Source: an uncultured Gemmatimonadaceae bacterium (lineage in GTDB: Bacteria > Gemmatimonadota > Gemmatimonadetes > Gemmatimonadales > Gemmatimonadaceae). Taken from it: a DNA stretch of 64,000 nt. The position numbers were made by a program, and so were the translations under genes. The DNA lies in NCBI GenBank assembly GCA_963790305.1, contig CAWBOC010000005.1, positions 64,001 to 128,000 of the forward strand, written 5' to 3'. This document shows, one piece after another, positions 3,596 through 60,688 of this stretch. A model generated the notes under the pieces. The model worked only from the letters and a program-made list of their open reading frames with translations. It did no database searches and was not told where the DNA came from. Every line of letters begins with the position of its first letter. The stretch's first letter is position 1.

Positions 3596-6049
3596 TTACC
3601 GTTTCCCCAATGCCTGGGCCGCGATTTTCCGCACTTCCGGATCCGCATCCTTCAGCAGCTCCACCAGCACTTCGACGGCGGCCGAATCCTCGATCTCCGA
3701 GAGTGCGTGCACCGCGGCGTAGCGCAGCGCATTGTCCTGTCCACGCGCCAGCACGGCCAGTACGCCGACAGCTGCCGGATCACCGATCTCGCCAAGCGCG
3801 TGCGCCGCGATCTTCCGAACTTCACGATCCTGGTCACGCGTGGCTTCGATCAGCGCCGGCGGCGCCTCACCGCTGAGGTCGATCTCTCCCAGCGCCCACG
3901 CCGCCTTCCGGCGAACGCCGACGTTCGCGTCCGACAGCGCCTTCGACAGAGCGGCGACCGCCGTCGCATCCTCGATCTCGCCAAGAGCCCATACCGCCGT
4001 CTCGCGCACCTTGGGATCGCGATCCCCGATTGCTGCCGCCAGGGCCTCGACCGCGCGTGGGCTCTCGATCTCGCCTAACGCCCACGCAGCCTGGTGCCGA
4101 ATTTCGGCGTTCTCGTCCTTCAGGAAGGGCAACAGGTGCGGCACGCCATTGGGTGACTCGATCTCGCCCAGCGCCCACACGGCCGTCTTGCGCACCTCGG
4201 GGCTGGAATCCTTGAGCGCGGCGCCCAGCGCTTCGACGGCGGTGGCGCTCTCGATCTCGCCTAACGCCCAGGCGGCCATCCGCCGAACTTCCTCATCTTT
4301 ATCGGAACGAAGGGCATCCGAGAGCGCCGGCACACCGGCCGCGTCCTCGATCTCACCGAGCGCCCACGCCGCCATGCGACGCACTTCGACGCTCTCGTCC
4401 GACCGCAGCGCCCGACTCAGCGCTTCGACGGCGCGCGGATCCTCGATACCGCCCAGGCCCTCGGCGGCCGCGAGCCGAACGAGCGGGTCCGCATCACTCA
4501 GCGCCGCTGACAATCCGGCCACGGCGCGCTCGCTGACACGCGAGTCCTGCTTATCCTGCCTGTCCTGGTGTTGCTGCCTCGACTGCTCGCGCGACATCGG
4601 CGCCGGCGGCTGTGGGGGCTGCGGAACTTGCTCGGCCTCCGGAGCCTGAATCTCAAAACGGAACGCCATGTCGCTCGCGTAGTTTTCCGCGACGTTCTTC
4701 GCCGTCTCGAGACTCGCGGTCACGTTGCCGACGATCTCGTTCCTCAGTGAGCCAAGATCCACGCCGAGGTTTTCGAACGCCGACTTCACGGTCTCGGCTA
4801 CGCCCAGGCCTTCGCCTTCGCCTTCGCCGACGCCGATTCCGGTGCCTTCCCCGCTACCCGTGCCCTCATCGTAGGCGACCGTTTCCTCGGCAGCCGCATC
4901 GTTCGCATCGCTGACCGGGGCGGGCGCCATCGCCGCCAGGGGCATCGCGATCGCCGCCACGAACACCGCGACCGCCAACGAGCGGACACGCGACGGCGCG
5001 CGCCGCGGGCTGATCGGATCGAGGATCGCGAGCAGGCGTCCTTCGAAGTCCGACCGCTGTGCCATTGGCAACGCCACCGCCGGCGACCGCGAGGTCCCCG
5101 CGTTGCGCACGATGTCGAGCAAGTCATCGGCGTACGTGGATGCCGTCATCCCGGAGCGAATCACGAGATCGTCGCAAGCACGCTCGCACTCGTCCCGCAG
5201 CTTGCGCGCGGCGCGCCACACGAGCGGATTCATCCAATGCAACGCGCACGCAATGCGTGACACGAGGCATGTCGCCACGTCATTCCGACGGACGTGCGCC
5301 AGCTCGTGCACGAGGACGGTAAGGCGGCGCTCCTCGCTCCACGACGTCGCCACCGGCGGCATGACGATCGTTGGGCGCAGAATGCCCAGCGTCACCGGCA
5401 TGCCGACGTCGGTGCTTTCATAGAGACGGACGGTGCCGCTTACGCCCGCCATCTCCTGCGCATCGCTCAACAGCTGACGCCACGACGGGTCGCGGACCGG
5501 CACTGCCCGGCTGACGAGCATGCGCGCCGAGATCGCCCCGATCGCGAGACGCACCAGCAACGCGATGGCAATGATGATCCACAGGGTGACGAAGCCTTCC
5601 GCTGGCGAAATCGCCGCGACCGTAGCGACCGTGCACCGCGAGAACAGCGGGCAGGCTTCGGCTGCGGGAAGCGCCGGATCGCTCGTGCCCGACACCAGGC
5701 GTGCCGCGAGCTCCTCGGCATTGGGAAGCGCCGCGTCATTGCTGGCGAAGACGGCGCGCTTGGGCCGCCTCGTCTCTGTATTCTCCTCAGGGGATGCGGC
5801 CGGCGCCGGCGGCGGCGTCACCTGCTCCACCGCTGGCGCGGGAACGGGCACCACCTCGAGACGGGGCAGCACCGCCGAGAGGACGGGAAGCGCGATGAGC
5901 ACCACGATGCCCGCGGCCCACGCGACATGCCGCGTCGCGGCCGAGGCGCCACGCATGAGTCGCGTGACAACGAAAATCGCGATGAGGAGCAGGGCGCCCT
6001 TTGCGCCCGTGTCGATCATCGTCGGGATCCAGCTCACGAAGCGCTCCAT
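3596..6049 (-). CDS. M56 (BlaR1/MecR1-like) membrane metallopeptidase with C-terminal HEAT repeats
   Basis: TM helices, HELAHVRRND, WMNPLVW, ERACDD motifs; about 10 AAWALGEIE-type repeats. Confidence 0.9.
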   Translation of the reverse strand: MERFVSWIPTMIDTGAKGALLLIAIFVVTRLMRGASAATRHVAWAAGIVVLIALPVLSAVLPRLEVVPVPAPAVEQVTPPPAPAASPEENTETRRPKRAVFASNDAALPNAEELAARLVSGTSDPALPAAEACPLFSRCTVATVAAISPAEGFVTLWIIIAIALLVRLAIGAISARMLVSRAVPVRDPSWRQLLSDAQEMAGVSGTVRLYESTDVGMPVTLGILRPTIVMPPVATSWSEERRLTVLVHELAHVRRNDVATCLVSRIACALHWMNPLVWRAARKLRDECERACDDLVIRSGMTASTYADDLLDIVRNAGTSRSPAVALPMAQRSDFEGRLLAILDPISPRRAPSRVRSLAVAVFVAAIAMPLAAMAPAPVSDANDAAAEETVAYDEGTGSGEGTGIGVGEGEGEGLGVAETVKSAFENLGVDLGSLRNEIVGNVTASLETAKNVAENYASDMAFRFEIQAPEAEQVPQPPQPPAPMSREQSRQQHQDRQDKQDSRVSERAVAGLSAALSDADPLVRLAAAEGLGGIEDPRAVEALSRALRSDESVEVRRMAAWALGEIEDAAGVPALSDALRSDKDEEVRRMAAWALGEIESATAVEALGAALKDSSPEVRKTAVWALGEIESPNGVPHLLPFLKDENAEIRHQAAWALGEIESPRAVEALAAAIGDRDPKVRETAVWALGEIEDATAVAALSKALSDANVGVRRKAAWALGEIDLSGEAPPALIEATRDQDREVRKIAAHALGEIGDPAAVGVLAVLARGQDNALRYAAVHALSEIEDSAAVEVLVELLKDADPEVRKIAAQALGKR

Positions 6050-6050
6050 T

Positions 6051-6437
6051 TTACCGTCCCTCCTTCTTGGCCTTACCGATCCGATCCGAGAGCCGCTCGA
6101 GTTCGGCGGGGGTGAGATTGGCGTCAGACATCTGCACGAGGGCTACGAGCGCCTGCTCGGCAGACCCATCGAAGAACGTGTGCACGAGATGCTTGAGCGC
6201 GGCGAACCCCGCTTTGTGGGTCGGGATCGCCGGCAGATAGACATAACGGGGCCCGTCCTGTTTGTGCTTCACGAGGCCCTTGTCCTCCAGGACGCGAAGC
6301 GTGGCGCGCACCGCCGAGTAGCTGGGCGGGTCGGGCATCCGCTCAATGACTTCGTTGACGGTGGCCTCACCGCTCTGGTAGAGCGCGTCCATAATCTCGC
6401 GCTCTCGGCGGGGCAGCTTGGTTTGAGGCAGGATCAT
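6051..6437 (-). CDS. BlaI/MecI/CopY family repressor
   Basis: RREREIMDALY, SYSAVRATLRVLEDKG, TFFDGS; adjacent to the M56 gene. Confidence 0.92.
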   Translation of the reverse strand: MILPQTKLPRREREIMDALYQSGEATVNEVIERMPDPPSYSAVRATLRVLEDKGLVKHKQDGPRYVYLPAIPTHKAGFAALKHLVHTFFDGSAEQALVALVQMSDANLTPAELERLSDRIGKAKKEGR

Positions 6438-6459: not shown

Positions 6460-6514
6460 TGCTAGATATCTAGCAGGCTGCTAGCTATCTAGCAGGGGCC
6501 TGATTCCTAGTCAA
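6460..6514 (-). promoter_or_regulatory. Tandem operator palindromes TGCTAG-N4-CTAGCA (6460-6475, 6479-6494) overlapping a putative blaI promoter (-35 TTGACT at 6514-6509)
   Basis: TGCTAGATATCTAGCA is a perfect palindrome; a second copy starts 19 bp away; TTGACT-N17-TAGATA on the minus strand. Confidence 0.7.
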
Positions 6515-6534
6515 GTAAGACTTGTGTAAACCGA

Positions 6535-6566
6535 GGGGTCAGGAGTCAGGAGTCAGGGATCAGGGG
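6535..6566. repeat. Family A left arm upstream of the four-helix-bundle gene
   Basis: ggggtcaggagtcaggagtcagggatcagggg. Confidence 0.9.
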
Positions 6567-6643
6567 GTTGGAGGTGAATGGGATCGGTCCCGTCGAGTGG
6601 GAGAGATCGCTTACCCTGAACCCGTCCCTGATCCCATTCCCTC

Positions 6644-7036
6644 GTGATCCGCAGCTATCGCGACCTTCACGTCTGGCAGCTCGGGATCCGCCTGGTCATC
6701 GAGTCCTACAAGGTAGGACAGCAGCTGCCAGCGGATGAGCGCTTTGGCCTAACAGCTCAAATCCGAAGGGCCGCTATATCCGTACCAGCCAACATCGCCG
6801 AGGGTCACGGGCGCTCGTCGCGCGGAGACTATCGCCACCACGTCTGGATCGCCGCCGGCTCGCTTCGGGAACTCGAGACCCTTTTCGAGATCCTCATCGT
6901 GCTGAAATACCTCGACGCGAAATCACTGGAGAGGGTAAGAGGGCTCTGCGATGAGCTCGGCCGCATGCTGACACGACTCGCCAAGCGCCTCGAATCACCA
7001 GCTCCCCGCCGTTCCCTACAACCCCCTGATCCCTGA
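6644..7036 (+). CDS. Four helix bundle protein (TIGR02436 / 23S-rRNA-IVS / Avd-like family)
   Basis: SYRDLHVWQ, ERFGLTAQIRRAAISVPANIAEG, IAAGSLRELET signature motifs. Confidence 0.93.
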   Translation: MIRSYRDLHVWQLGIRLVIESYKVGQQLPADERFGLTAQIRRAAISVPANIAEGHGRSSRGDYRHHVWIAAGSLRELETLFEILIVLKYLDAKSLERVRGLCDELGRMLTRLAKRLESPAPRRSLQPPDP

Positions 7037-7057
7037 CCCCTGACTCCTGACACCTAG
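7023..7057. repeat. Family A right arm; supplies the stop codon of the four-helix-bundle gene
   Basis: cccctgatccctgacccctgactcctgacacctag. Confidence 0.9.
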
Positions 7058-8545
7058 TCAAATGCGCCCAAACCTCACCCCCGACACCTCCACGGCGACC
7101 GCGCGATTGCCGTCGAACTCAAAACGCGCCACGCTCCCCGACCCCGTGAGCTCCACCCGAAGCGCATTCTGCGCACCATCAAAAACCTCCACCGCGCTCC
7201 ACGCCTCGCCGGCGCGTGCCTCGAGCTTGCCGTTCACGACGCTGAACACGAGACGCCCGTAGAGCTCGTTCTCGTACGTACCCGCATACGCCTCCAGCGG
7301 GAAGGGCAGCGTTTGCGGACGTGCAGCGCGCCGCGCGCGGTCGGTTGCCACACGCTCACGGAACCCTTCGGCCTCGGTTCGAAGACGCGCGAGCGAGTCG
7401 GCGGAGAATCCCGCTCCATTAATGAGCCGCGAGTATACCGCGCGCGCGGCGAGCTCGGCCAGCGCCGAGCCGGTTCCGTTCTCGTTCGTCATGACGATCA
7501 CGCCGATCCGTCGCTGGGGCATGAACGACATGCTGGTGCTGAATCCGAGGAAGCCGCCGCCGTGCGTAAGAACCGTATCGGTACCGAGCGTGCCGATCTG
7601 CCATCCAAATCCGTAGCCGTTGAGCAACAGCCCACGAGCGTTTGCGCGGACAGTCGCCTGCCGCCGGTGCGTCTCGGCGATCGCGCTCGCCGGGAAGACG
7701 CGGCGGCCGTCGACGACACCGCCGTTGATGTGCGCCTCCAGCCAGCGTGCCATGTCCACGGCGCTGGAGACGAGACCTCCTGCCGCCTGCATGTTCGCAT
7801 CACCCTTGCTGTACGGGGCGCGCGCGAAGCCCGTCGGCTCCCGGCGATAGGGCTGCGCCAGCCGCTCACGCGGCATGCGAGAGACGTACGCGCTCGTGCT
7901 CGTCATGCCTAACGGCTGAAAGATCGTACGCTGCAGGACGTCCCGCCAGCTTGCGCCGGTCGTCGCGTCCATGGCAAGCGCGGCGATGTTGTAGCCGATG
8001 TTGCCGTAGACGTAGTCCCGTCCGGTCTTGGCGGCCGGGTGCGAGGGGAGGAGCGCGACGAGCCGGTCGTTCGTATGCTCGCCGCTGAAGGCGGTGCGAA
8101 AGACGATCGGCCCATCGTTGTCGATGCCGTGCGTGTGCGAGAGCAGCGACCGCAGCGTGATGGAGTCGGGGCTGAGCGGCGCCTGGAGCTTCGCCGCGGG
8201 CAGGTAGCGGCTGAGCGGCGCGTCGAGATCGAGACGGCCCTGTTCATCGAGCAACACGGCGGCGAGCCCGGTGAACGATTTGGTCGTCGAGGCGATGTAG
8301 AAGATCGTCTCCGGCGTGACCGGGCGTTGCGCCTCGACGTCGGCCCACCCGAAGCCCTTCGCGTAGATGACCTGTGTGTCGCGCACGACCGCGATCGACA
8401 TCCCCGGTGCGAGGTCGAGGGCGAAGAGCGCGGTGAGCGTGGAGTCGAGAGCAGCGGTCGTCGACGTGGTCGAGGTCGTCGAGGGAGTCGAGTACTGCGT
8501 GCCGGCGCAGCCGAGCACGAGCGAGAGGAAAGCCAGGCGAATCAT
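7058..8545 (-). CDS. Serine hydrolase, beta-lactamase class C-like, with C-terminal DUF3471-like domain
   Basis: FYIASTTKS (SxxK), YGN, HGG motifs; YAGTYENELYG; lipoprotein signal. Confidence 0.88.
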   Translation of the reverse strand: MIRLAFLSLVLGCAGTQYSTPSTTSTTSTTAALDSTLTALFALDLAPGMSIAVVRDTQVIYAKGFGWADVEAQRPVTPETIFYIASTTKSFTGLAAVLLDEQGRLDLDAPLSRYLPAAKLQAPLSPDSITLRSLLSHTHGIDNDGPIVFRTAFSGEHTNDRLVALLPSHPAAKTGRDYVYGNIGYNIAALAMDATTGASWRDVLQRTIFQPLGMTSTSAYVSRMPRERLAQPYRREPTGFARAPYSKGDANMQAAGGLVSSAVDMARWLEAHINGGVVDGRRVFPASAIAETHRRQATVRANARGLLLNGYGFGWQIGTLGTDTVLTHGGGFLGFSTSMSFMPQRRIGVIVMTNENGTGSALAELAARAVYSRLINGAGFSADSLARLRTEAEGFRERVATDRARRAARPQTLPFPLEAYAGTYENELYGRLVFSVVNGKLEARAGEAWSAVEVFDGAQNALRVELTGSGSVARFEFDGNRAVAVEVSGVRFGRI

Positions 8546-13377: not shown

Positions 13378-14385
13378 ATGACAATTGCCCTATACCGCTC
13401 CACCACTCTTGTCCTCGCGCTTCCGGTGCTCTCGGCCTGCAGCACGATACGGGAGATGTTCCCGTCGCGTGAGGAAGTCTTCAAGCCGATCCCGGTGACC
13501 ATTGGGGACGTGCGCGTGATCGGCGAGGACACGGTCTACGTGCTCGAGTCCCCGGAGTACGAGCTCGTCGCACCAATGCGCGAGCTTCTGCCCAATGCAC
13601 GCAAGGCCCTCGATCACACCGCGCGCGAATACCGTCGCGTCTTTGGCGACGATCCGCAAAAGATCGTGGTCGAGCTGCGCGCGGTGTCGCGCGACCGCGT
13701 GGCGGACGGCTGGATCCCCGACACGGTAGAGCCCAACGAAGGGCCACGCCGCGCCGTCGCTCCCGCCATCGTCCCGGAGAAGCGCTCATCGCGTGCGCCG
13801 GTGGCTCCCGCAGGATTCCTGATGATGCGCGCCGCGCGCGCCTGGCTGCTTGCCCGCGCCGATTACCGCGTTGGCCGCTCACCCTCGGCGCCCACCGCAC
13901 AGGTTCGTTTTGGCGACGACGCACGCATCCCCGACTGGGTCGAGGATGCGCTCACCGAGCTGATCGGCGGATCACCGGCGCAGGAGATGTACGTGGCGCG
14001 CCTTGCTGAACGCGCGGAAACGGTGTCGTTGCGCGATGTGCTCGAGGCGACGCGACCGGAGCCCACGAAGGACGCGCAGCGTCGCGCTCAGCTTCCGCCG
14101 ACGTCAGCAACGCGACCTGCCGGCGGTGTCTTCATGGGCGGGCCAGCGAGCCGCGACCGGGGGAAGCTGGAGGGCGCGGAGCTCTTCCGCGCGCAGGCGG
14201 TCGCCTTCGCGATCTTCCTCGCCGAGCACGAGGGCCGCGAGTTCCTCGGCACCGTCACCGACCGCCTGCTCTCGGGCGAGTCCGCCGAGACGGCGCTCAC
14301 CGCCGCGACGACGTTGCCTGACGATTTGGCGGGGATGGAGAAAGCGTGGAAGGATTGGCTGAGAAAGCTGGCTGCGCGGAACTAG
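13378..14385 (+). CDS. Hypothetical lipoprotein (possible peptidase-MA-like fold)
   Basis: LSA-C lipobox, IPDWVEDAL, terminal EKAWKDWL. Confidence 0.7.
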   Translation: MTIALYRSTTLVLALPVLSACSTIREMFPSREEVFKPIPVTIGDVRVIGEDTVYVLESPEYELVAPMRELLPNARKALDHTAREYRRVFGDDPQKIVVELRAVSRDRVADGWIPDTVEPNEGPRRAVAPAIVPEKRSSRAPVAPAGFLMMRAARAWLLARADYRVGRSPSAPTAQVRFGDDARIPDWVEDALTELIGGSPAQEMYVARLAERAETVSLRDVLEATRPEPTKDAQRRAQLPPTSATRPAGGVFMGGPASRDRGKLEGAELFRAQAVAFAIFLAEHEGREFLGTVTDRLLSGESAETALTAATTLPDDLAGMEKAWKDWLRKLAARN

Positions 14386-14517
14386 GAGTCAGGAGTCAGG
14401 GGTCAGGGATCGGGGGAGTTAGGGAAAGACAAGGGGAAAGGAGAGCGAAGCTGTTCTCCTTTCCCCTTTGTTTGCCCTGACTCCCCCTGATCCCTGATCC
14501 CTGACTCCTGGCGCCTA
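14383..14517. repeat. Family A element copy A4 with a 14-bp perfect internal hairpin
   Basis: Heptamer arms plus aaggggaaaggaga/tctcctttcccctt; between convergent stops. Confidence 0.92.
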
Positions 14518-17121
14518 GTAATTGAACCAGTACGACGCCTTGATGAGAAACGTATTGTTCGGATGCAGCGCGAACAGATCTCTGTAGTCCTGGATTCCCT
14601 CGAAGTCGGACGGGCGGCCGACGTCGCGGAAGCGGCCCTGCTGCCACACGAAGAAGATCGTTGAGCCGGGGCGGTATTCCCAGCGCACGACGGCGTTGGT
14701 GTTGAGCTGCTTGAAGTCGAAGCCTCCCGGATCGCACGGAGTTGCGCTCGCGGCTCCATCGCAATCGCGCGTGAACGGCTGGAATCGGCCTTCGTACGAC
14801 ACGTTCTGCGGATCGGTGAGATCGCGGAGGTTCATGAACGTGCCCTTCGAGATGAAGGGCTGCGCGTAGAACTGGAGCGAGAGGTTCGGCGTCGCCGTGA
14901 AGTTGATGCGGGTCGTAACGTTCACCGTCGTTTGATCGAGCTCGGCGAAGGCGTAGTGCGTCGAGTCATGGCCGGTCGCGCCGAAGCGATCGAAGAACTG
15001 ATCGTCTTCGTGCTGCCACTCGTAATAGAAGTACACCCCGCCGTTGAACCGCGTCGAGAAGCGATAGTTGAACGACGGCTCCACCCAGTGACCCTTGCTC
15101 TGCCCTTCGTTGTTGCGCCAGGTGCCACCGAACAGGAAGGGAGTGATCTGCCACCGCGAATCCCCCTCCACGCCAGTCCAGACGTCGTAGCTCGCGTCAC
15201 GGCGGATGGCCGGGCCGCCGCGCGAGTTGCGATCATCATAGCTGCGACCGGCGAAATCGCTGACGGTGATTCCCCAGTTCAACCACCACTGGTTCTGGAG
15301 CTGGACATGCCAGTTGGTGTTCACGCCTTCGCGTGTCGGCAAGCCCTCCGACGACCAGTAGCGCCAGTAGTTGCTATTGAAGTTCGCGCGACGCCAGTAC
15401 TTGGTGGGCTTGGTGAATTGCAACGCGAACCAGTTGCGGAACATGATCTCGTCGGCACGCTGGAGCCAGCCGAGGTCGTTGAGCTCATACCCGGTCGAGT
15501 AGCGTTGCAGCACGCTCTGGAACCGCGTGATGCCGCCACCGAACTTGCTCATCGAGATGCGCTGCGCGTCTCCGATGAGATTGTCCTGGGTCGGATCATA
15601 TTCAGCGTCGTCATCCGGCCGCTGGTAGTAGTGCACGCTGCTGCGCTGAATGCTCGCGATCGCCTCCGGGTCGCCGCGCACCGTGCTCCCGGAGAGCATG
15701 GCAGCGACCTCGTAGTTGTTGCTCCAGAAGCGGTGCCGGCCGTCGAGGCCGATCGCGTACGCCTCACGAGCCATCGCCGGCCTGGTGACCGCATCGAGGC
15801 GACGGTTCACGGCCGTCATCATCAGGCCAATGTCGCTCGAGCCCTTGTTCAGATCCTGACGCAGGCGAGCCACCGCATAGTTCGTCTGTGGCTCGATCGT
15901 CGTGCCTTCCGCACCAACCTCGTGCTGCGTGAGGGCATTCAGAAACCCGACCGATAGCCCGCTGCCTAACCGTCCCGTGATTTTCGTGGCGCCGAGAATC
16001 GTGGTCGCCAGTGCATCCCCCGAGGCGCCGCCGAGCCCGGGGGCGCGGCCGATACGCCGCGAGTAGAACAGCCCGCGACAACCCGTGTCGATGTCCTGAC
16101 AGTTGGTCCGGAAGGTGAAGATGCCCATCCCTTCGAGAAAGAACGGCCGGCGCTCCTCGCGGAACGTCTCGAACGCGGTGAGGTTGAGCGTCGCCGGGTC
16201 GGCCTCGACCTGTCCGAAGTCGGGATTGATCGTCGCATCGAGCGTCAGGTTCGACGACAACCCGTACTTGATGTCGGCGCCGTAGGATCCGAGCGTCGGA
16301 TGGGTGTAGGTCTCGCGACCGGTGGCGTCCTCGCCTTCGTTCGTCACGCTCTTGACGACGGCGTACGGCGCGATCTCGAGGCGGCGCGGCGTCGGAATGT
16401 TCGTGATCCCGCCGATCTCGCCCGACTGCGAGACGTATCCCTGCTTCGATCGGCTATAGAGCGGCCAGCTGATGCGCGCGTTGGTACGAGCAATGTCGCG
16501 CACGATCATGAGGCCGAAGGTGTGCTCCGGCTTGTTCGCGAACCGCAGCTGACTGAACGGAATGCGGAACTCGGCAACCCAGCCCACGCTGTCGATGGTG
16601 GTGGCGACGTCCCACACCGCATCCCACGAGGCATCCTCGACGTTGTCATTGTAGACGTAGAAGTCCCGCTTGACGCCGGCGGGATTCACGCAGAACTGAT
16701 AGGCCGTGCGCTTGTCGTTGTACGAATCGATCACGAGCTTCACCTGCTCGGACTGCGTGCGCACGTCGCGCCGAGAGAGGAGCGAGATGATGCTGTCGGG
16801 TGCCGGGTCGTACATGCGCACGAGGACGTAGAGGTTCTTGTCATCGAACGTCACGCGCGCTTCGGTCTTGAAGCGCGTCTCGGCGCCCTCGGTGGGCTCG
16901 TACTCGAGGAACTTGTCAATGACCTGGGCCTGCGCCCACGCCGGATCGTCGGTGCGTCCATCGAGCACCGGAGCAATGGTGGCGCGGCTCGCGCTGGCGA
17001 TACGTGCATCGGCAAGGCCGGCAATGGCGACGCTGGTCGGCGGTGCACCATTCGAGGCAAGGATTTGCGCGGCCGCCAGGGAGGGTGCGACGGCGAGCGC
17101 GAACAGAACGAAGCGAAGCAT
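14515..17121 (-). CDS. CBM9-like/DUF5916 outer-membrane protein
   Basis: PVLDGRTDDPAW, TINPDFGQVEAD, ERRPFFLEG, RWEYRPGS, terminal YWFNY. Confidence 0.85.
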   Translation of the reverse strand: MLRFVLFALAVAPSLAAAQILASNGAPPTSVAIAGLADARIASASRATIAPVLDGRTDDPAWAQAQVIDKFLEYEPTEGAETRFKTEARVTFDDKNLYVLVRMYDPAPDSIISLLSRRDVRTQSEQVKLVIDSYNDKRTAYQFCVNPAGVKRDFYVYNDNVEDASWDAVWDVATTIDSVGWVAEFRIPFSQLRFANKPEHTFGLMIVRDIARTNARISWPLYSRSKQGYVSQSGEIGGITNIPTPRRLEIAPYAVVKSVTNEGEDATGRETYTHPTLGSYGADIKYGLSSNLTLDATINPDFGQVEADPATLNLTAFETFREERRPFFLEGMGIFTFRTNCQDIDTGCRGLFYSRRIGRAPGLGGASGDALATTILGATKITGRLGSGLSVGFLNALTQHEVGAEGTTIEPQTNYAVARLRQDLNKGSSDIGLMMTAVNRRLDAVTRPAMAREAYAIGLDGRHRFWSNNYEVAAMLSGSTVRGDPEAIASIQRSSVHYYQRPDDDAEYDPTQDNLIGDAQRISMSKFGGGITRFQSVLQRYSTGYELNDLGWLQRADEIMFRNWFALQFTKPTKYWRRANFNSNYWRYWSSEGLPTREGVNTNWHVQLQNQWWLNWGITVSDFAGRSYDDRNSRGGPAIRRDASYDVWTGVEGDSRWQITPFLFGGTWRNNEGQSKGHWVEPSFNYRFSTRFNGGVYFYYEWQHEDDQFFDRFGATGHDSTHYAFAELDQTTVNVTTRINFTATPNLSLQFYAQPFISKGTFMNLRDLTDPQNVSYEGRFQPFTRDCDGAASATPCDPGGFDFKQLNTNAVVRWEYRPGSTIFFVWQQGRFRDVGRPSDFEGIQDYRDLFALHPNNTFLIKASYWFNY

Positions 17122-17273: not shown

Positions 17274-17370
17274 GAGGTCGTCGAGGGTGTCGAGGTCGTC
17301 GAGGCAATCGAGGGAACGTCGTCGCCTCTCCTCGATCACGTCGACGACCTCGACATCCTTGATCACCTTG
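17274..17370. repeat. Palindromic element family C (9-mer GTCGAGGTN arms), copy C1
   Basis: gtcgagggtgtcgaggtcgtcgagg ... cctcgatcacgtcgacgacctcgac. Confidence 0.88.
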
Positions 17371-18652
17371 AGGTTGCGAGATCACCTGGCAACCGCGGAG
17401 TGCTCAACAGCTCACCGAACCGCTGCCACCGCTCGGCCGGCGTCGCAACGCGCTCCACGTACGCTTTCACTAGATCCTGGCCGAGGTTGTAGTTGATCAC
17501 GTAGCTGCGGTACGTGTCGAAGAAGCGGACGCGTTGGCGCGCACGCTCGGGTGACGACAACGAATAGCGGACCAGCCAGTCGGCGGCCTGCTCGGCCGTG
17601 ATCTGCCCGTTCAGATAGCGTCGCGCCGCTTCGTTGCCGGCGTAGGTGAGCTCGCGCATGAGCTCCTGCACCGTGTAGTAGGCATCCGCTCGTGAGGCAT
17701 CCAGACCGGCGAGCGGAAAGAGCACTGCCTTCTCGTACGCCACGCGCTCCGCCCCGGGGAACGCCATCTCAATGCCGTAATTCGCGCTGCCCTCGGCAAT
17801 GAGCGATTGCGGAGAGAACAACGGATAGACCGAGTACTCCATCCAGCCGCGCTCGCGTACCAGACGATGCTCGAGCAGGGCGTTGTAGACGTGGTGGCCA
17901 GGATATCCCTCGTGACAGGCGAGGTCGACGGCGCGGTCGATGTAGATCGGCAGCTCGACGTTCACCTGAATGAGCGAGCGGTAGTTGCCCTGATACCAGT
18001 TGTATCCGCTCCACGGCTTGTCGATCACGGGCTCGACGGTGAAGCGCTCGCCCGGTGGCAGCACGAGGCGCCGTGACGTACGCGCCTTGCATTCGGCGAT
18101 CGCGGTCGCGAACACGGTGTCGAGCTTCTCACGCGGAATGACGAACGCGCGGCGGAACTCCTCCATCCGCTGGGGCACTGGCCCTGTTCCGGGCAGGAGG
18201 CGCGACAGCGTATCGATCACGCGCTGGAAGTGCGCGTCGTCGTGCGTGGGCGCCACCGCATCGTAGAGCGCCTTCGATTCTTCATCGAAGGTGAATCGCT
18301 GCCCCTGCAGCATGCGCACTCGCGCGCGAAGCGAGCTCAGCTGAGTTCGCAGATATCGATTGCGCAGCGCCGGAAGCTCATCGCCGGCTGGTGCAGGCCC
18401 GAGCTGCGCGAGGCCCACGTCCGCTCGCCGCAGGATTTCGTCCAGCGGCAGCTTCGCCGAGTCGGCGGACGCTTTCCATTCGGGCGGGCCGTAGTACGCG
18501 TCCACGTAGTTGGCGTCGTGCTGACCAACGGCGAGCACGAGCTTGACGTACGATTCGGCGATCGCGTTCATGTTCGGATCGGATTCGGACAGGCGCGCCG
18601 ACGCACAACCGGACAGGAGCGCGGCGGCAAGTAGAGAAATGCGGACAGACAC
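17363..18652 (-). CDS. DUF885-like lipoprotein (putative metalloprotein)
   Basis: HEGYPGHH, AEGSANY; GTG start after AAGGAG; lipobox LSG-C. Confidence 0.8.
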   Translation of the reverse strand: MSVRISLLAAALLSGCASARLSESDPNMNAIAESYVKLVLAVGQHDANYVDAYYGPPEWKASADSAKLPLDEILRRADVGLAQLGPAPAGDELPALRNRYLRTQLSSLRARVRMLQGQRFTFDEESKALYDAVAPTHDDAHFQRVIDTLSRLLPGTGPVPQRMEEFRRAFVIPREKLDTVFATAIAECKARTSRRLVLPPGERFTVEPVIDKPWSGYNWYQGNYRSLIQVNVELPIYIDRAVDLACHEGYPGHHVYNALLEHRLVRERGWMEYSVYPLFSPQSLIAEGSANYGIEMAFPGAERVAYEKAVLFPLAGLDASRADAYYTVQELMRELTYAGNEAARRYLNGQITAEQAADWLVRYSLSSPERARQRVRFFDTYRSYVINYNLGQDLVKAYVERVATPAERWQRFGELLSTPRLPGDLATSR

Positions 18653-41565: not shown

Positions 41566-44457
41566 ATGCACGCGTCCCGCTGCGCCGCGCTCCTGCTCGC
41601 GGCCGTTCTCGTCGCCCCAATCGGTGCACAGCAAGCGCACGACGCCGAGTACACGGCGAAGATTCGAGAGCTTACGCCGACCGACGTGAAGTGGAAGTTC
41701 ACCACCGAGCTCGTCGACCACCTCCCGGCATCGGCGACGGTACCGTCCCCACTCAAGGTCCTCGGCTACGTTCCCGGCACTCCCGGGCGTCTGTCATACG
41801 TCGCCGACATCAATCGCTACTTCCGTGCACTCGACGCGGCGTCGCCTCGCGTGTCGCTCGTCTCACTCGGCACGAGCGACGAAGGGCGCGAGATGCTCCT
41901 CGCGGTCATCGCCGACGAGGCGACCATGTCGCGCCTCGAGGAGTATCGGACGATGCTCGGTCGCATCGCGGATCCCCGCGGCCTGACGGCGGAGGAGAAG
42001 ACGCGCCTGCTCGGCAGCGCGAAGCCCATCTACTGGCTCACCGGATCGATCCACTCTCCGGAGATCGGCAGTCCGGAGATGCTGATGGAGCTCGCGTATC
42101 GGCTGGCCGTCGACGAGTCGGAGTTCGTGAAGACGATCCGTTCCGGCGTCATCACCCTGATCACACCGGTGACGGAGGTCGACGGACGCGACCGCATGGT
42201 GGACGTCAACAAGCTCACGCGGCAGCTCAAGCTCGGGCCGCAGGGCGTGTCGCTCATCTACTGGGGGAAGTACACCGCACACGACAACAACCGTGACGGC
42301 ATGGTGCTCTCCCAGAAGCTCACGCAGAACGTGATGAAAGGATTCCTGCACTGGAAGCCGGTCGTTTTTCACGATCTGCACGAGTCGGTGCCGTTCCTGT
42401 ACACGAGCACTGGCACCGGTCCGTACAACGACGAGTTCGACCCGATCGTGATTCAGGAATGGCACACCCTGGCGTACCAGGAGATCACCGAGCTCACGCG
42501 GCGCGGGCTACCCGGCGTGTGGACACACGGCTTCTACGACGGGTGGGCGCCTAACTACATGCTGGCGATCGGCAACCTCCACAACAGCATCGGTCGTTTC
42601 TACGAGACGTACACATCGACCGGCACCGATTGTCAGACGGTGAAGCTTCCGGCGACGCAGACGGAGCGCCGCTGGGACCGCCCGAACCCGCCCGTGAACG
42701 GCGTGAAGTGGTGCATGCGCAGCAACATCAACTACCAGCAGTCGGGTGTGATGATCGCGCTCAAGTACGTCGCCGACCACTCGCGCACCTTCCTCGACAA
42801 CTATCTCGCGAAAGCCGATCGGATGGTGCGGAAGGGGCAGACGTCGGCACCGTACGCGTTCGTGATTCCGCGCGACCAGCGTCGCGTCGCGGAAGCGGCC
42901 GATCTCGTGAATCTGTTCCGGGCCCACGGGGCGGAAGTGCACGTCGCCGACGGAGACTTCGAGATCAAGGGGGCAGGAGTCAGGAGTCAGGGATCAGGGG
43001 GGGCCGGGGCACGAGGGGATAGCGCAGGTGCTGCGCGCCCCGTGTCACCTGACTCCGCAACGCGCCCCCTGGTTCCTGACTCCCGACCCCTGACCCCTAC
43101 GACAGTCAAACGCGGCGACTGGATCGTGCGCCTGGATCAGCCGTATACGGCGACCGTCCGTACGCTGCTCGCCGTCCAGAAGTACAAGGCCGACGATCCG
43201 CCGCCGTACGACGACACCGGCTGGACCCTCGACGAGCTGCGGCACGTCGTGACGTACAAGATCAGCGACTCGACCGTCCTCGCGAAACCGATGACCTTGA
43301 TGACGGCCGACGCCAAGGTCGAAGGAAGCCTGTCCGGAGACGGTGGTGTCGTGCTCGTCGAGCACCTGGGCGACTGGCGCTCGGCGGTGCTTCCCTGGAA
43401 GGTGGGAGGAACGCGCGTGCGTGCAGCCGAGGTGGCGTTTACCGCGGCAGGGCGCACGTGGCCGGCGGGCACGTACCTCGTTCCCGCCGACGGGCGCGCG
43501 CGCACCGCGGTCCGTGACCTCGGCCTAACGGCTGTCGCGGTCGCCAGCGCACCCACCGTTCGTACGCACGACGTCAAGCCGCCACGCGTGGCGCTCGTGC
43601 ACTCCTGGCTCGAGACGCAGAACGAAGGGTGGGTGCGCTACGCCTTCGACCAGCTCGGTGTGCCCTATACGTACATCTCTGATCAGTCTCTCGCGGCATC
43701 CGGCCGTCTCGACGCCTTCGATGTCCTGGTCTTCCCGCACGTGAATGGCTCGGCGCAGGCGCTGATCAACGGTCGCCCAATGACAGGGCCGCCGATTCCG
43801 TGGAAGAAGACGGCGCTCACGCCGAACCTCGACAAGTGGGACACGACCGACGACATCCGCCGTGGCATGGGGCTGGACGGAGCGGCAGCGTTGCGACGCT
43901 TCGTGGAGCGCGGCGGCGTTCTCATCACGACCGGCAATACGTCGCGTCTTCCGATCACGTTAGGCTTCAATCCGACGGTCAGTGAAGCGGAGGCCCGAAC
44001 GCTGCGTGCTCGCGGCGCGATCTTCCGTGCGAAGGGCGACACGACGGGAAGTCCCATTCTGTACGGCTACGAGCGCTCGACGTTCCCGGTGTATTTCAAC
44101 CAATCGCCCCTCCTCTCGGTGCAGCCGCCCGACACGACTGGACGTCTCGATGCGGTCGATCCTGCCATCATCGCCGACATCGAGCGCCAGCGCGGACGCA
44201 TCGTGCTGCGATTCCACGACAAGGCCGATTCATTGCTCGTGTCCGGACTGCTCGTGAACGGTGGTGAGATGACGGGCAAGGCGGCGGTGGTCGATGCACC
44301 GGTCGGACGGGGTCATGTCGTGCTCTTCGGCATCCGTCCAATGTGGCGTTGGCAGTCCCAGGGCACGTTCGCGATGCTGCTGAATGCAATGGTGCACTGG
44401 GATCATCTGGGCACGATCACAAGGGTAGAGAAGCCAACGGTGGCGGCAGGGCAATGA
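41566..44457 (+). CDS. M14 family zinc carboxypeptidase, exported
   Basis: IHSPE, DGRD, DNNRD, HDLHE motifs. Confidence 0.88.
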   Translation: MHASRCAALLLAAVLVAPIGAQQAHDAEYTAKIRELTPTDVKWKFTTELVDHLPASATVPSPLKVLGYVPGTPGRLSYVADINRYFRALDAASPRVSLVSLGTSDEGREMLLAVIADEATMSRLEEYRTMLGRIADPRGLTAEEKTRLLGSAKPIYWLTGSIHSPEIGSPEMLMELAYRLAVDESEFVKTIRSGVITLITPVTEVDGRDRMVDVNKLTRQLKLGPQGVSLIYWGKYTAHDNNRDGMVLSQKLTQNVMKGFLHWKPVVFHDLHESVPFLYTSTGTGPYNDEFDPIVIQEWHTLAYQEITELTRRGLPGVWTHGFYDGWAPNYMLAIGNLHNSIGRFYETYTSTGTDCQTVKLPATQTERRWDRPNPPVNGVKWCMRSNINYQQSGVMIALKYVADHSRTFLDNYLAKADRMVRKGQTSAPYAFVIPRDQRRVAEAADLVNLFRAHGAEVHVADGDFEIKGAGVRSQGSGGAGARGDSAGAARPVSPDSATRPLVPDSRPLTPTTVKRGDWIVRLDQPYTATVRTLLAVQKYKADDPPPYDDTGWTLDELRHVVTYKISDSTVLAKPMTLMTADAKVEGSLSGDGGVVLVEHLGDWRSAVLPWKVGGTRVRAAEVAFTAAGRTWPAGTYLVPADGRARTAVRDLGLTAVAVASAPTVRTHDVKPPRVALVHSWLETQNEGWVRYAFDQLGVPYTYISDQSLAASGRLDAFDVLVFPHVNGSAQALINGRPMTGPPIPWKKTALTPNLDKWDTTDDIRRGMGLDGAAALRRFVERGGVLITTGNTSRLPITLGFNPTVSEAEARTLRARGAIFRAKGDTTGSPILYGYERSTFPVYFNQSPLLSVQPPDTTGRLDAVDPAIIADIERQRGRIVLRFHDKADSLLVSGLLVNGGEMTGKAAVVDAPVGRGHVVLFGIRPMWRWQSQGTFAMLLNAMVHWDHLGTITRVEKPTVAAGQ
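42974..43098. repeat. Family A element inserted in frame within the M14 peptidase
   Basis: caggagtcaggagtcagggatcagggg ... cctggttcctgactcccgacccctgacccct. Confidence 0.85.
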
Positions 44458-59930: not shown

Positions 59931-60599
59931 ATGTCGCCTGTGACCATCGTTCTCGCTCTCGTGCTGCTCATCGGCACCGCGTTGCATGGCGTCGGTGCGC
60001 TCCTGCACCCGATGCTTGCCGGTGACGGCGCCACACAACTTCGCACGATCGCCGACATGGCGCACTGGCGAGAGCTCCACCTGGTCATGCTCGCCGGCAG
60101 CGGCCTCATCGTCGCGGGCGTGTGGGTTCGGCTGGTGGGAGATCGCGCGTTCGTTCGTCCCCCGCTCGTCGCCGCCCTCGCGGTGATCTCCATCGGGGTG
60201 ACCATCAACGCGCTCAACATCGCGTACATGACGGGCGCCGGGTGGCACATGGCCTCGCAATTTGCCGCGGGCGATGCCTCCATGGTGCCGCTGTTCGACG
60301 CGACCCATCCCATCGGCCTCATGGCCGCCCGCTTCGGCAACTTCATCGTCGCGCTTGGTGCCCTCGTGCTCGGCTGGGCGGAATGGCACGACGCCGAGCC
60401 GCGCCGTGTCGATGCGGTACTGGCGTGGATCGCGGGGGTGGGCGGTCTGGTTGGCGCGATCTTCTTCCTGGAGTCGAGCCGTATCGCGCTCGCCGCGGTC
60501 GCCCTGCTCTCGGCTTGGCAGGTCGTCACCGCGCTCAGGGCCCTTACCTTGTCGGTGAGGGGGTCGCGCCGTACGATCACCGAGGATACCAGGAGTTAG
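59931..60599 (+). CDS. Multi-pass membrane protein
   Basis: About 6 TM; LHP and W..LH motifs. Confidence 0.75.
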   Translation: MSPVTIVLALVLLIGTALHGVGALLHPMLAGDGATQLRTIADMAHWRELHLVMLAGSGLIVAGVWVRLVGDRAFVRPPLVAALAVISIGVTINALNIAYMTGAGWHMASQFAAGDASMVPLFDATHPIGLMAARFGNFIVALGALVLGWAEWHDAEPRRVDAVLAWIAGVGGLVGAIFFLESSRIALAAVALLSAWQVVTALRALTLSVRGSRRTITEDTRS

Positions 60600-60688
60600 G
60601 AGTCAGGAGTCGGGAATCAGGGGAACAGCGCTGCGCCGCAGGCGTGCGTATCTGACAACTGACACCTGACGTCTGATCCCTGACGTCT
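60590..60688. repeat. Family A-like element with a hybrid right arm
   Basis: caggagttaggagtcaggagtcgggaatcagg ... ctgacaactgacacctgacgtctgatccctgacgtc. Confidence 0.82.

Follow-up and report, generated by a model that had tools for sequence, protein, structure and literature searches.

A PF05635 four-helix-bundle gene inside a tandem-heptamer hairpin repeat of an uncultured Gemmatimonadaceae bacterium

Background

Why should a small protein gene lie between the two complementary arms of a palindromic repeat, when the same arms recur elsewhere in the genome around short non-coding spacers? The question is raised by a locus in a stretch of 64,000 nucleotides, hereafter the window (positions 64,001 to 128,000 of contig CAWBOC010000005.1, assembly GCA_963790305.1), which is part of contig C5 of an uncultured soil bacterium of the Gemmatimonadaceae with a 4.31 Mb genome (66% G+C, 94% complete). 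The element under study occupies window positions 6534-7059, all feature coordinates below being given in this frame, and comprises two arms, a leader and a gene for a four-helix-bundle member of the PF05635/TIGR02436 family. We favor, with some reserve, the view that it is a gene-bearing copy of a hairpin repeat whose protein, by binding arms of the family to which it belongs, keeps about 80 gene-less copies going. In sister genomes the arms of a given family are seldom abundant unless the corresponding gene is also found, and the protein therefore likely maintains the repeat system.

To our knowledge, PF05635 is a large orphan family, spread over many phyla and represented by solved structures, for which no function is available outside the diversity-generating retroelements (DGRs). 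The over-representation of heptamers in bacterial genomes has long been noted and left unexplained (PMC4692102 and PMC4679880, accessible portions). The present locus and its genus tie the orphan function and the heptamer excess into one testable link.

Results and discussion

Organization of the cassette and its gene

The cassette is delimited by an inverted repeat (6534-6574 and 7015-7055) with 41-nt arms that are 93% complementary, lie 440 nt apart and consist of tandem GGRRTCA heptamers. On the plus strand, the G-rich left (5') arm at 6534-6574 contains approximately five to six tandem units (AGGGGTC AGGAGTC AGGAGTC AGGGATC AGGGGGT ...), while the right (3') arm at 7015-7055 contains the complementary C-rich heptamers (CCCCCTGATCCCTGACCCCTGACTCCTGACACC). 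The first-pass annotation of this DNA, made from the letters alone, had set the arms at 6535-6566 and 7023-7057; these arms are real, but the limits take in only the cleanest heptamers, and complementarity extends some 8 nt beyond the inner edge of either arm. The left arm is followed on the plus strand by a leader reaching to the start codon (6575-6643), which forms its own hairpin in the minimum free energy structure, shows conserved blocks in our alignment A3, and contains C-rich heptamer-like words (CCCTGAA, CCTGATCCC) that could alternatively pair with the left arm. The gene itself (6644-7036, plus strand) encodes 130 aa between a GTG start and a TGA stop at 7034-7036. This stop is inside the first unit of the right arm, as had been noticed at first sight, and the gene indeed runs opposite to its minus-strand neighbors at 3596-6049, 6051-6437 and 7058-8545. 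In the predicted RNA fold of the 526-nt unit, the right arm pairs with the left and the arms close the cassette, with a folding energy of -245.3 kcal/mol as against -202.5 +/- 6.7 in shuffled sequences (z -6.35). The outer limits of the whole insertable arm-leader-gene-arm unit, 6534-7059, are given by similarity to a second copy in the related genome G008 and by an empty site in G002, both described below. A promoter scan detected no sigma-70-like site, a result that is uninformative for this phylum.

In profile searches the gene product covers positions 1-108 of the 109 in TIGR02436 at 111.6 bits (cut-off 24) and reaches 115.8 bits with PF05635 (cut-off 33.8), which confirms the family membership originally proposed. 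Its relatives in the PDB are 2gsc (XCC0516, E 4e-19) and 2rld, both deposited with five chains, and by analogy to these solved structures it is predicted to form a pentamer. A family motif has been given as GxxRxxxSxxxNxxE (PMC3936711, accessible portion); the cassette protein contains the RxxxSxxxNxxE part, with S37, N41 and E44 invariant and R33 nearly invariant among 17 aligned relatives, and has Q30 rather than G at the first position. PADLOC returned no defense match for the cassette protein.

The same fold superfamily includes Avd, the DGR accessory protein, described in the accessible part of its literature as a nucleic-acid-binding pentamer that acts with a partner enzyme. The cassette might be the remnant of a DGR with the gene as its Avd, and weak similarity to the Avd models NF033474 (29.5 bits) and PF22296 (22.5 bits) is in keeping with such an origin. 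However, these scores lie below the respective cut-offs of 80 and 40, and no RVT_1 match is found in the 94% complete genome, which is thus without a reverse transcriptase. There is also no template/variable repeat pair. The sub-cut-off scores and the absence of RVT_1 contradict a DGR remnant, and we accord it a negligible probability.

Among eight genes of the GGRRTCA arm family, the ratio of nonsynonymous to synonymous substitution rates (Ka/Ks) ranges from 0.03 to 0.16 (23 of 28 pairs having unsaturated Ks), indicating at the level of sequence that the four-helix-bundle protein is under strong purifying selection. The arms are near-invariant in six copies from five genomes, with gene Ks values of 0.27-1.7 where computable. 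For the G000 and G008 orthologs, a count by eye in alignment A3 gives roughly 2 differences over 69 arm positions, at a Ks of 0.81. By these comparisons the arms are much more conserved than the synonymous sites.

Dispersed arm families and their association with TIGR02436 genes

The arms of the cassette recur throughout the genome. A strict pattern recovers 60 adjacent pairs of G-rich and C-rich GGRRTCA arms, with a spacer of 40-100 nt in 56 and of 464 nt in a single one, which is this gene; a looser pattern yields 80 paired elements with a median length of 126 nt. Genome-wide, 78 short spacers enclosed by GGRRTCA arms are gene-less, and the roughly 80 copies of the family have near-identical arms of 28-35 nt. 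Within the window, three tandem GGRRTCA units (at most one mismatch) occur 14 times, versus none in each of 100 shuffles. A scan free of any preset word detected 149 inverted tandem-array pairs in the genome, 95 with period 7 and 53 with period 9. All six TIGR02436 matches of the genome are flanked by inverted tandem arrays, and each of these six genes has its own 7- or 9-nt word, namely GGAGTCA, GGGGAGT, GAGGTCGTC, GTCAGAN, GCTAGAGGC and GGAATGC. Every one of these words was seen by the word-free scan to form gene-less palindromes too, from a few to about 80 per word. The paralogues share 34-53% identity with the protein of the cassette.

The association extends well beyond this genome. Arms were called throughout from the top-scoring ungapped inverted repeat shared by the two flanks, which had to score at least 14 and to show tandem periodicity. 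By this test, periodic inverted arms enclose 34 of 34 loci in a first set of relatives and 31 of 34 in a second, the three misses being contig-end or fragment cases; the two sets together comprise 18 relatives and 65 positive loci out of 68. Across many phyla, including Acidobacteriota, Planctomycetota, Bacteroidota, Chloroflexota, Proteobacteria, Verrucomicrobiota and Patescibacteria, 60 of 80 loci are positive (period 7 in 55), and most of the 20 misses have shorter periodic arms slightly below the threshold. Mismatched flanks are positive in only 4 of 80 cases. Orthologous loci retain their arms, and the arms around these genes are strongly enriched relative to random 320-bp intervals of this genome, of which 2 of 600 are positive. 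Arm length ranges from 4 to about 8 units and so lends no support to a fixed number of five; the notion of one protein subunit per repeat unit was accordingly left aside as unsupported.

Gain and loss of the cassette in congeners

At the orthologous site the cassette is present in G004, G005 and G008, with 86-88% identity through the flanks. A comparison of syntenic loci for empty sites, which had been proposed at the outset, identified one in G002, where the same two flanking genes are separated by about 55 unrelated bases and arms are absent. G008 has a second cassette copy on contig C54 that shows 88% similarity only over positions 1364-1890 of our locus L001, equivalent to window positions 6534-7060, from arm tip to arm tip. 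The flanks of this second copy match our own contig C7, where a gene-less palindrome of the nonamer family sits instead, and G006 contains a cassette at the same second site as G008. Taken together, these alignments indicate that the arm-gene-arm block is gained or lost as one unit. Contigs from four soil-metagenome DNA runs gave only arm pile-ups and joints with sides of 20-35 nt, which come from gene-less copies elsewhere and are uninformative for the locus.

Co-occurrence of genes and arm words

The sister genomes provide a natural series of gains and losses of six gene/word pairs. In a matrix of six families by nine congeners, where each cell counts the matches of one arm family, at least 30 matches (a threshold picked post hoc) are found in 20 of 21 gene-positive cells as opposed to 4 of 33 gene-negative cells. 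GGGCCAR has 92-207 matches in the five genomes with its gene and 0-2 in those without, and GGGTSCTCR has 169-343 in four genomes with and 1-25 without. For CTGCGWR there are 258-629 matches in three genomes with the gene; those without have 0-1, and the present genome 33, its CTGCGWR arms being few, of at most 4 units and partly solo. GGGGAGT, the gene of which is confined to this genome among the nine, has 34 matches here and 0-4 elsewhere. The GAGGARC gene occurs in three genomes with 168, 137 and 3 matches (one of the three genes being a contig-end fragment in G008), while gene-negative genomes have 56 in G004 and 2-9 elsewhere. Finally, GGRRTCA, counted as BLAST matches, has 95-121 in five genomes with the gene and 97, 84, 17 and 1 in those without. 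The correspondence descends to single bases in the nonamer family: G003 has 250 matches of GGGTGCTC and none of GGGTCCTC, and G004, G005 and G008 have 0-2 and 102-192, respectively, the variant agreeing in each of the four genomes with the arms of the resident gene. In three relatives that have no TIGR02436 match (G011, G019 and G016), samples of 324, 160 and 232 kb contain no inverted array pairs; the density in this genome, 3.29 per 100 kb, would lead to about 23 in the pooled 716 kb.

The arms at 6/6, 65/68 and 60/80 genes, the block-wise gain and loss, the tracking of the cognate gene by arm families in the congeners and the retention of arms at orthologous loci all bear out the central suggestion of the first-pass annotation, namely that a dispersed repeat system has its coding member in this gene and that its gene-less derivatives carry the same arms.

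Proposed mode of maintenance

An intervening sequence (IVS)-type selfish cassette plus gene-less derivatives is the best-supported account of these observations. In the transcript the arms would pair into a stem of about 40 bp, and RNase III would cut this stem, by analogy to the IVS of 23S rRNA that bear an open reading frame (ORF); given such cutting, the cassette could sit in or beside host transcription units. The protein, a predicted pentamer, would recognize the word repeated in its family's arms and promote the copying, expansion or homogenization of arms with host replication or recombination enzymes. The gene-less hairpins would represent internal-deletion or hitch-hiking derivatives that would decay after loss of the cognate gene. 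For the binding of the own word and the copying or homogenizing role, the basis is the co-occurrence together with the family link to the nucleic-acid-binding Avd.

The converse arrangement would have the hairpins as the primary entity, REP- or MITE-like (see below) and moved or rebuilt by a host enzyme, with the four-helix-bundle gene as a long-time passenger that has no role in their spread. In its favor, a catalytic signature is absent from the protein, G001, G002 and G004 contain arms that lack a cognate gene, and three of the six genes in this genome are frame-shifted. The arms also enclose other interiors: in 18 of the 80 GGRRTCA elements the core is unrelated, with the palindrome CTCATCTGATGAG set between two GC-rich hairpins whose loops are of the GAAG/TTCG type (e.g. 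L089 at C9:360950-361210, L090 and L091; fold -135 kcal/mol, z -16.6). Yet the four-helix-bundle gene is the only recurrent cargo and is under strong purifying selection. Moreover, each paralogue retains its own word despite divergence to 34-53% identity, the families are abundant almost exclusively alongside their gene, and samples of gene-lacking relatives are devoid of such hairpins. On balance a passenger gene appears unlikely to us. The two-hairpin interior has no match to an Rfam family, and a hammerhead ribozyme, considered for the CTCATCTGATGAG interior, was rejected at 18 bits versus a gathering score of 48.5 and in the absence of the GAAA element, the other matches being sub-threshold ones to generic long-hairpin miRNA models.

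Several observations weigh against an active role of the protein in maintaining the hairpins. No copying enzyme was identified, RVT_1 and Y1_Tnp both having 0 matches genome-wide (two candidates scored for the latter), and for Coxiella the published conclusion is that the bacterium does not produce S23p in vivo (PMC4990558, accessible portion). At two filled-versus-empty comparisons no target-site duplication is evident; a 16-nt direct repeat (D3) considered as such was dismissed because its left copy is conserved in genomes that lack the cassette. GGRRTCA arms are present in G001 (97 BLAST matches) and G002 (84), where no such gene was found. GAGGAAC arms are present in the gene-negative G004 (56), and G001, with a GAGGAAC-type gene, has only 3 matches. 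G015 has 13 TIGR02436 matches but a single inverted array pair in 238 kb; many gene-less copies are therefore not obligatory where the gene is present. Three of the six genes of the present genome carry one frame change each relative to intact relatives (L003, C7:228042; L004, C9:163389; L005, C9:787730), which may reflect decay, assembly error or a programmed event, yet their families are present in gene-less form (about 2 to 30 array pairs). Lastly, all nine genomes are kin, and drafts of 110-330 contigs make up seven of the other eight, so that the counts of the matrix are not independent trials, and shared descent of gene and arms can explain much of the co-occurrence.

With these points taken into account, maintenance of the arms by the cassette protein is still the reading that we prefer. 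A more far-reaching form of it, advanced here only tentatively, is a new class of selfish element in which the sole gene encodes a small non-enzymatic pentameric four-helix bundle, each paralogue reads its own word of 7-9 nt, repeated about five times in two complementary arms, and hundreds of gene-less hairpins are copied, lengthened and homogenized via host replication or recombination enzymes. If true, this would explain both the orphan function of PF05635 and the long-noted heptamer excess in bacteria; if the protein does drive the spread of the hairpins, it would constitute a mobile element without a nuclease or polymerase of its own.

Genomic placement and polarity of the elements

Judged by crude ORF calls, the elements lie at a median of 6 nt from the stop codon of a neighbor, convergent gaps hold 42 of 118 intergenic elements versus 364 of 1554 background gaps, and divergent gaps are avoided. 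Such placement could suggest immobile hairpins that evolved locally as terminators or mRNA-stabilizing stems, with units arising from replication slippage, and with the gene being an ordinary small one that needs a stem for its regulation. Very low folding energies (-44 to -112 kcal/mol in the gene-less window copies tested) fit this explanation, as do two sites that carry different families in sister genomes, which is expected if a hairpin is needed there. Local origin does not sit well, however, with about 80 copies having near-identical 28-35-nt arms, with one single-base variant prevailing genome-wide in each genome, with similarity of the second G008 copy that stops exactly at the arm tips, or with gene-lacking relatives that do without such hairpins; we consider it improbable. 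Homing of cassettes into existing hairpins was considered for the two sites and not adopted, as elements take up an appreciable fraction of the small number of tolerated 3' gaps and may share a site by chance. The dinucleotide TA often abuts the arms but is an ambiguous sign of target-site duplication, being palindromic and often part of an outer degenerate unit. The adjacency of the hairpins to stop codons and their differences between close relatives make them relevant to annotation and strain typing. They also break assemblies, and many of the genes that we found sit at contig ends.

The elements have a pronounced polarity, the 5' arm on either strand being G- or purine-rich in 133 of 135 local palindromes and 120 of 125 cassette loci. 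The first of these counts is compatible with G-rich arms that act as G-quadruplex regulatory repeats, as the heptamers of Xanthomonas and Nostoc have been read, with pairing and the enclosed gene being incidental. Support also comes from 186 and 183 repeats of the GGGAATC type, quadruplex formation having been demonstrated for such sequences (Rehm et al. 2015, PMC4692102, accessible portion). Nevertheless, several families have no G runs (CTGCGAA, CAGAATT, GGAATGC), every array has a complementary partner, and the link to the gene is left unexplained. This explanation is very improbable in our estimate.

Relationship to known systems

The nearest parallel is offered by the IVS of 23S rRNA in Leptospira and Coxiella burnetii, where a PF05635 gene (S23p in the latter) likewise lies between terminal inverted repeats, which pair into a long stem. 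In C. burnetii the 28-bp terminal stem is cut by RNase III, tandem GACAGAT heptamers with a strain-variable copy number precede the S23p ORF, and the IVS is viewed as selfish and as acquired horizontally (PMC4990558, accessible portion). The cassette differs in lying between repressor and serine-hydrolase genes, with no rRNA detected by Rfam in the window, and in having arms composed wholly of tandem words. Furthermore, one genome holds six paralogous cassettes with six words, each word has from a few to about 80 gene-less copies, and the gene is under strong purifying selection. Genes of the 23S_rRNA_IVP type have also been reported inside cas loci (PMC3936711, accessible portion).

The repetitive extragenic palindromes (REP) and bacterial interspersed mosaic elements (BIME) resemble the present system in that a dispersed palindromic family is paired with a single-copy gene flanked by inverted repeats, that of the REP-associated tyrosine transposase (RAYT). 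The likeness to RAYT/REP that had been drawn from the sequence holds for the non-autonomous side, as derivatives with the same arms exist, but fails for the enzyme, the genome having neither a Y1 transposase (Y1_Tnp, 0 matches) nor a reverse transcriptase. RAYT is a Y1 (HUH) transposase, whereas the cassette protein is a helical bundle of small size for which no catalytic site is known, and the cassette arms are tandem arrays. MITEs (miniature inverted-repeat transposable elements), such as the Correia elements of Neisseria, are comparable as hairpin-forming inverted-repeat elements of 100-150 nt that lie at gene ends and have no transposase of their own. Correia transcripts are reportedly cut by RNase III. 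In contrast to the cassette family, with its ragged tandem ends and no duplication seen at two filled-versus-empty comparisons, MITEs descend from insertion sequences, with defined termini and target duplications; the full-length form of the cassette, in addition, carries a non-enzymatic gene.

The gene-less hairpins share G-rich 7-nt intergenic units, mostly about four per array, with the (GGGAATC)n repeats of Xanthomonas, the GGGGA(C/T)T repeats of Nostoc and the short tandemly repeated repetitive (STRR) sequences, which are cyanobacterial heptamer repeats. All of these are probably the same kind of gene-less hairpin. The Xanthomonas repeats consist mostly of four units, are intergenic, form 70-75 convergent pairs per genome and were read as quadruplex repeats (PMC4692102, accessible portion). 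They differ from our elements in this interpretation as quadruplex-forming simple repeats, and the searched passages of PMC4692102 name no associated gene; the link of heptamer repeats to PF05635 is the new element of the present analysis. The TAACTGA repeats form a partial precedent (PMC4679880, accessible portion). Full-text literature searches retrieved no paper in which PF05635 genes located outside rRNA are connected with arms of tandem repeats or with dispersed hairpins that have no gene, and a PF05635 gene between complementary arrays of 7-9-nt tandem words, accompanied by gene-less hairpins, is apparently an undescribed type of element.

Other hairpins, repeats and neighboring genes

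Five gene-less copies had been listed in the window from the outset, and all are real, two of them being less complete than supposed. Those at 69-192 and 42969-43098 are hairpins with GGRRTCA-type arms, and the one at 14382-14518 is paired nearly to its loop (-112 kcal/mol, z -13.6). The copy at 1218-1316 retains little of its outer left arm, whereas its counterpart at the orthologous position in G005 is complete, and the copy at 60590-60687 is degenerate, with a right arm that has drifted (CTGACAA CTGACAC CTGACGT ...). Among the congeners, element sites in the initial 20 kb of the window are frequently polymorphic; one site has different families depending on the genome, and another has a single remaining unit. 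A gene-less palindrome of the nonamer family (GAGGTCGTC) lies at about 17274-17378, and the same intergenic spot in G004 and G008 is occupied by a palindrome of the heptamer CTGCGAA. At 1882-1894 there is a lone ACTGCGT unit where G004, G005 and G008 have a palindrome with CTGCGAA/GCTCGCA arms, apparently the scar of a deletion between short TACT repeats. At gathering scores, Rfam detects only a tRNA in the window.

Other cargo was sought in long array pairs without TIGR02436; these proved to be mostly outward-facing arms of two adjacent elements around an ordinary gene, and were rejected. A 94-aa ORF without a TIGR02436 match lies between GGAATGC arms at C7:189546-189911; it may represent a second type of cargo or else a small gene of the host with a half element on each side. 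Many of the two-unit matches among the solo arrays are words of the GGCGTTAGG type. The word CGTTAGGC has been described as hyper-abundant in this genome.

ORF and profile calls place three minus-strand genes around the cassette. The first (3596-6049) encodes a BlaR1-like M56 sensor of 817 aa, which is fused to a long HEAT-repeat tail that matches repeat models of the phycobilisome-lyase type. It is followed by genes for a BlaI/CopY-like repressor (6051-6437) and, beyond the cassette, for a class C beta-lactamase-like serine hydrolase (7058-8545). Between the repressor gene and the cassette, at 6460-6494, lie two near-identical palindromic boxes of 17-18 nt (TGCTAGATATCTAGCAGG and TGCTAGCTATCTAGCAGG), which are kept in G002 and G003 and are probably the operator of the BlaI/CopY-like repressor.

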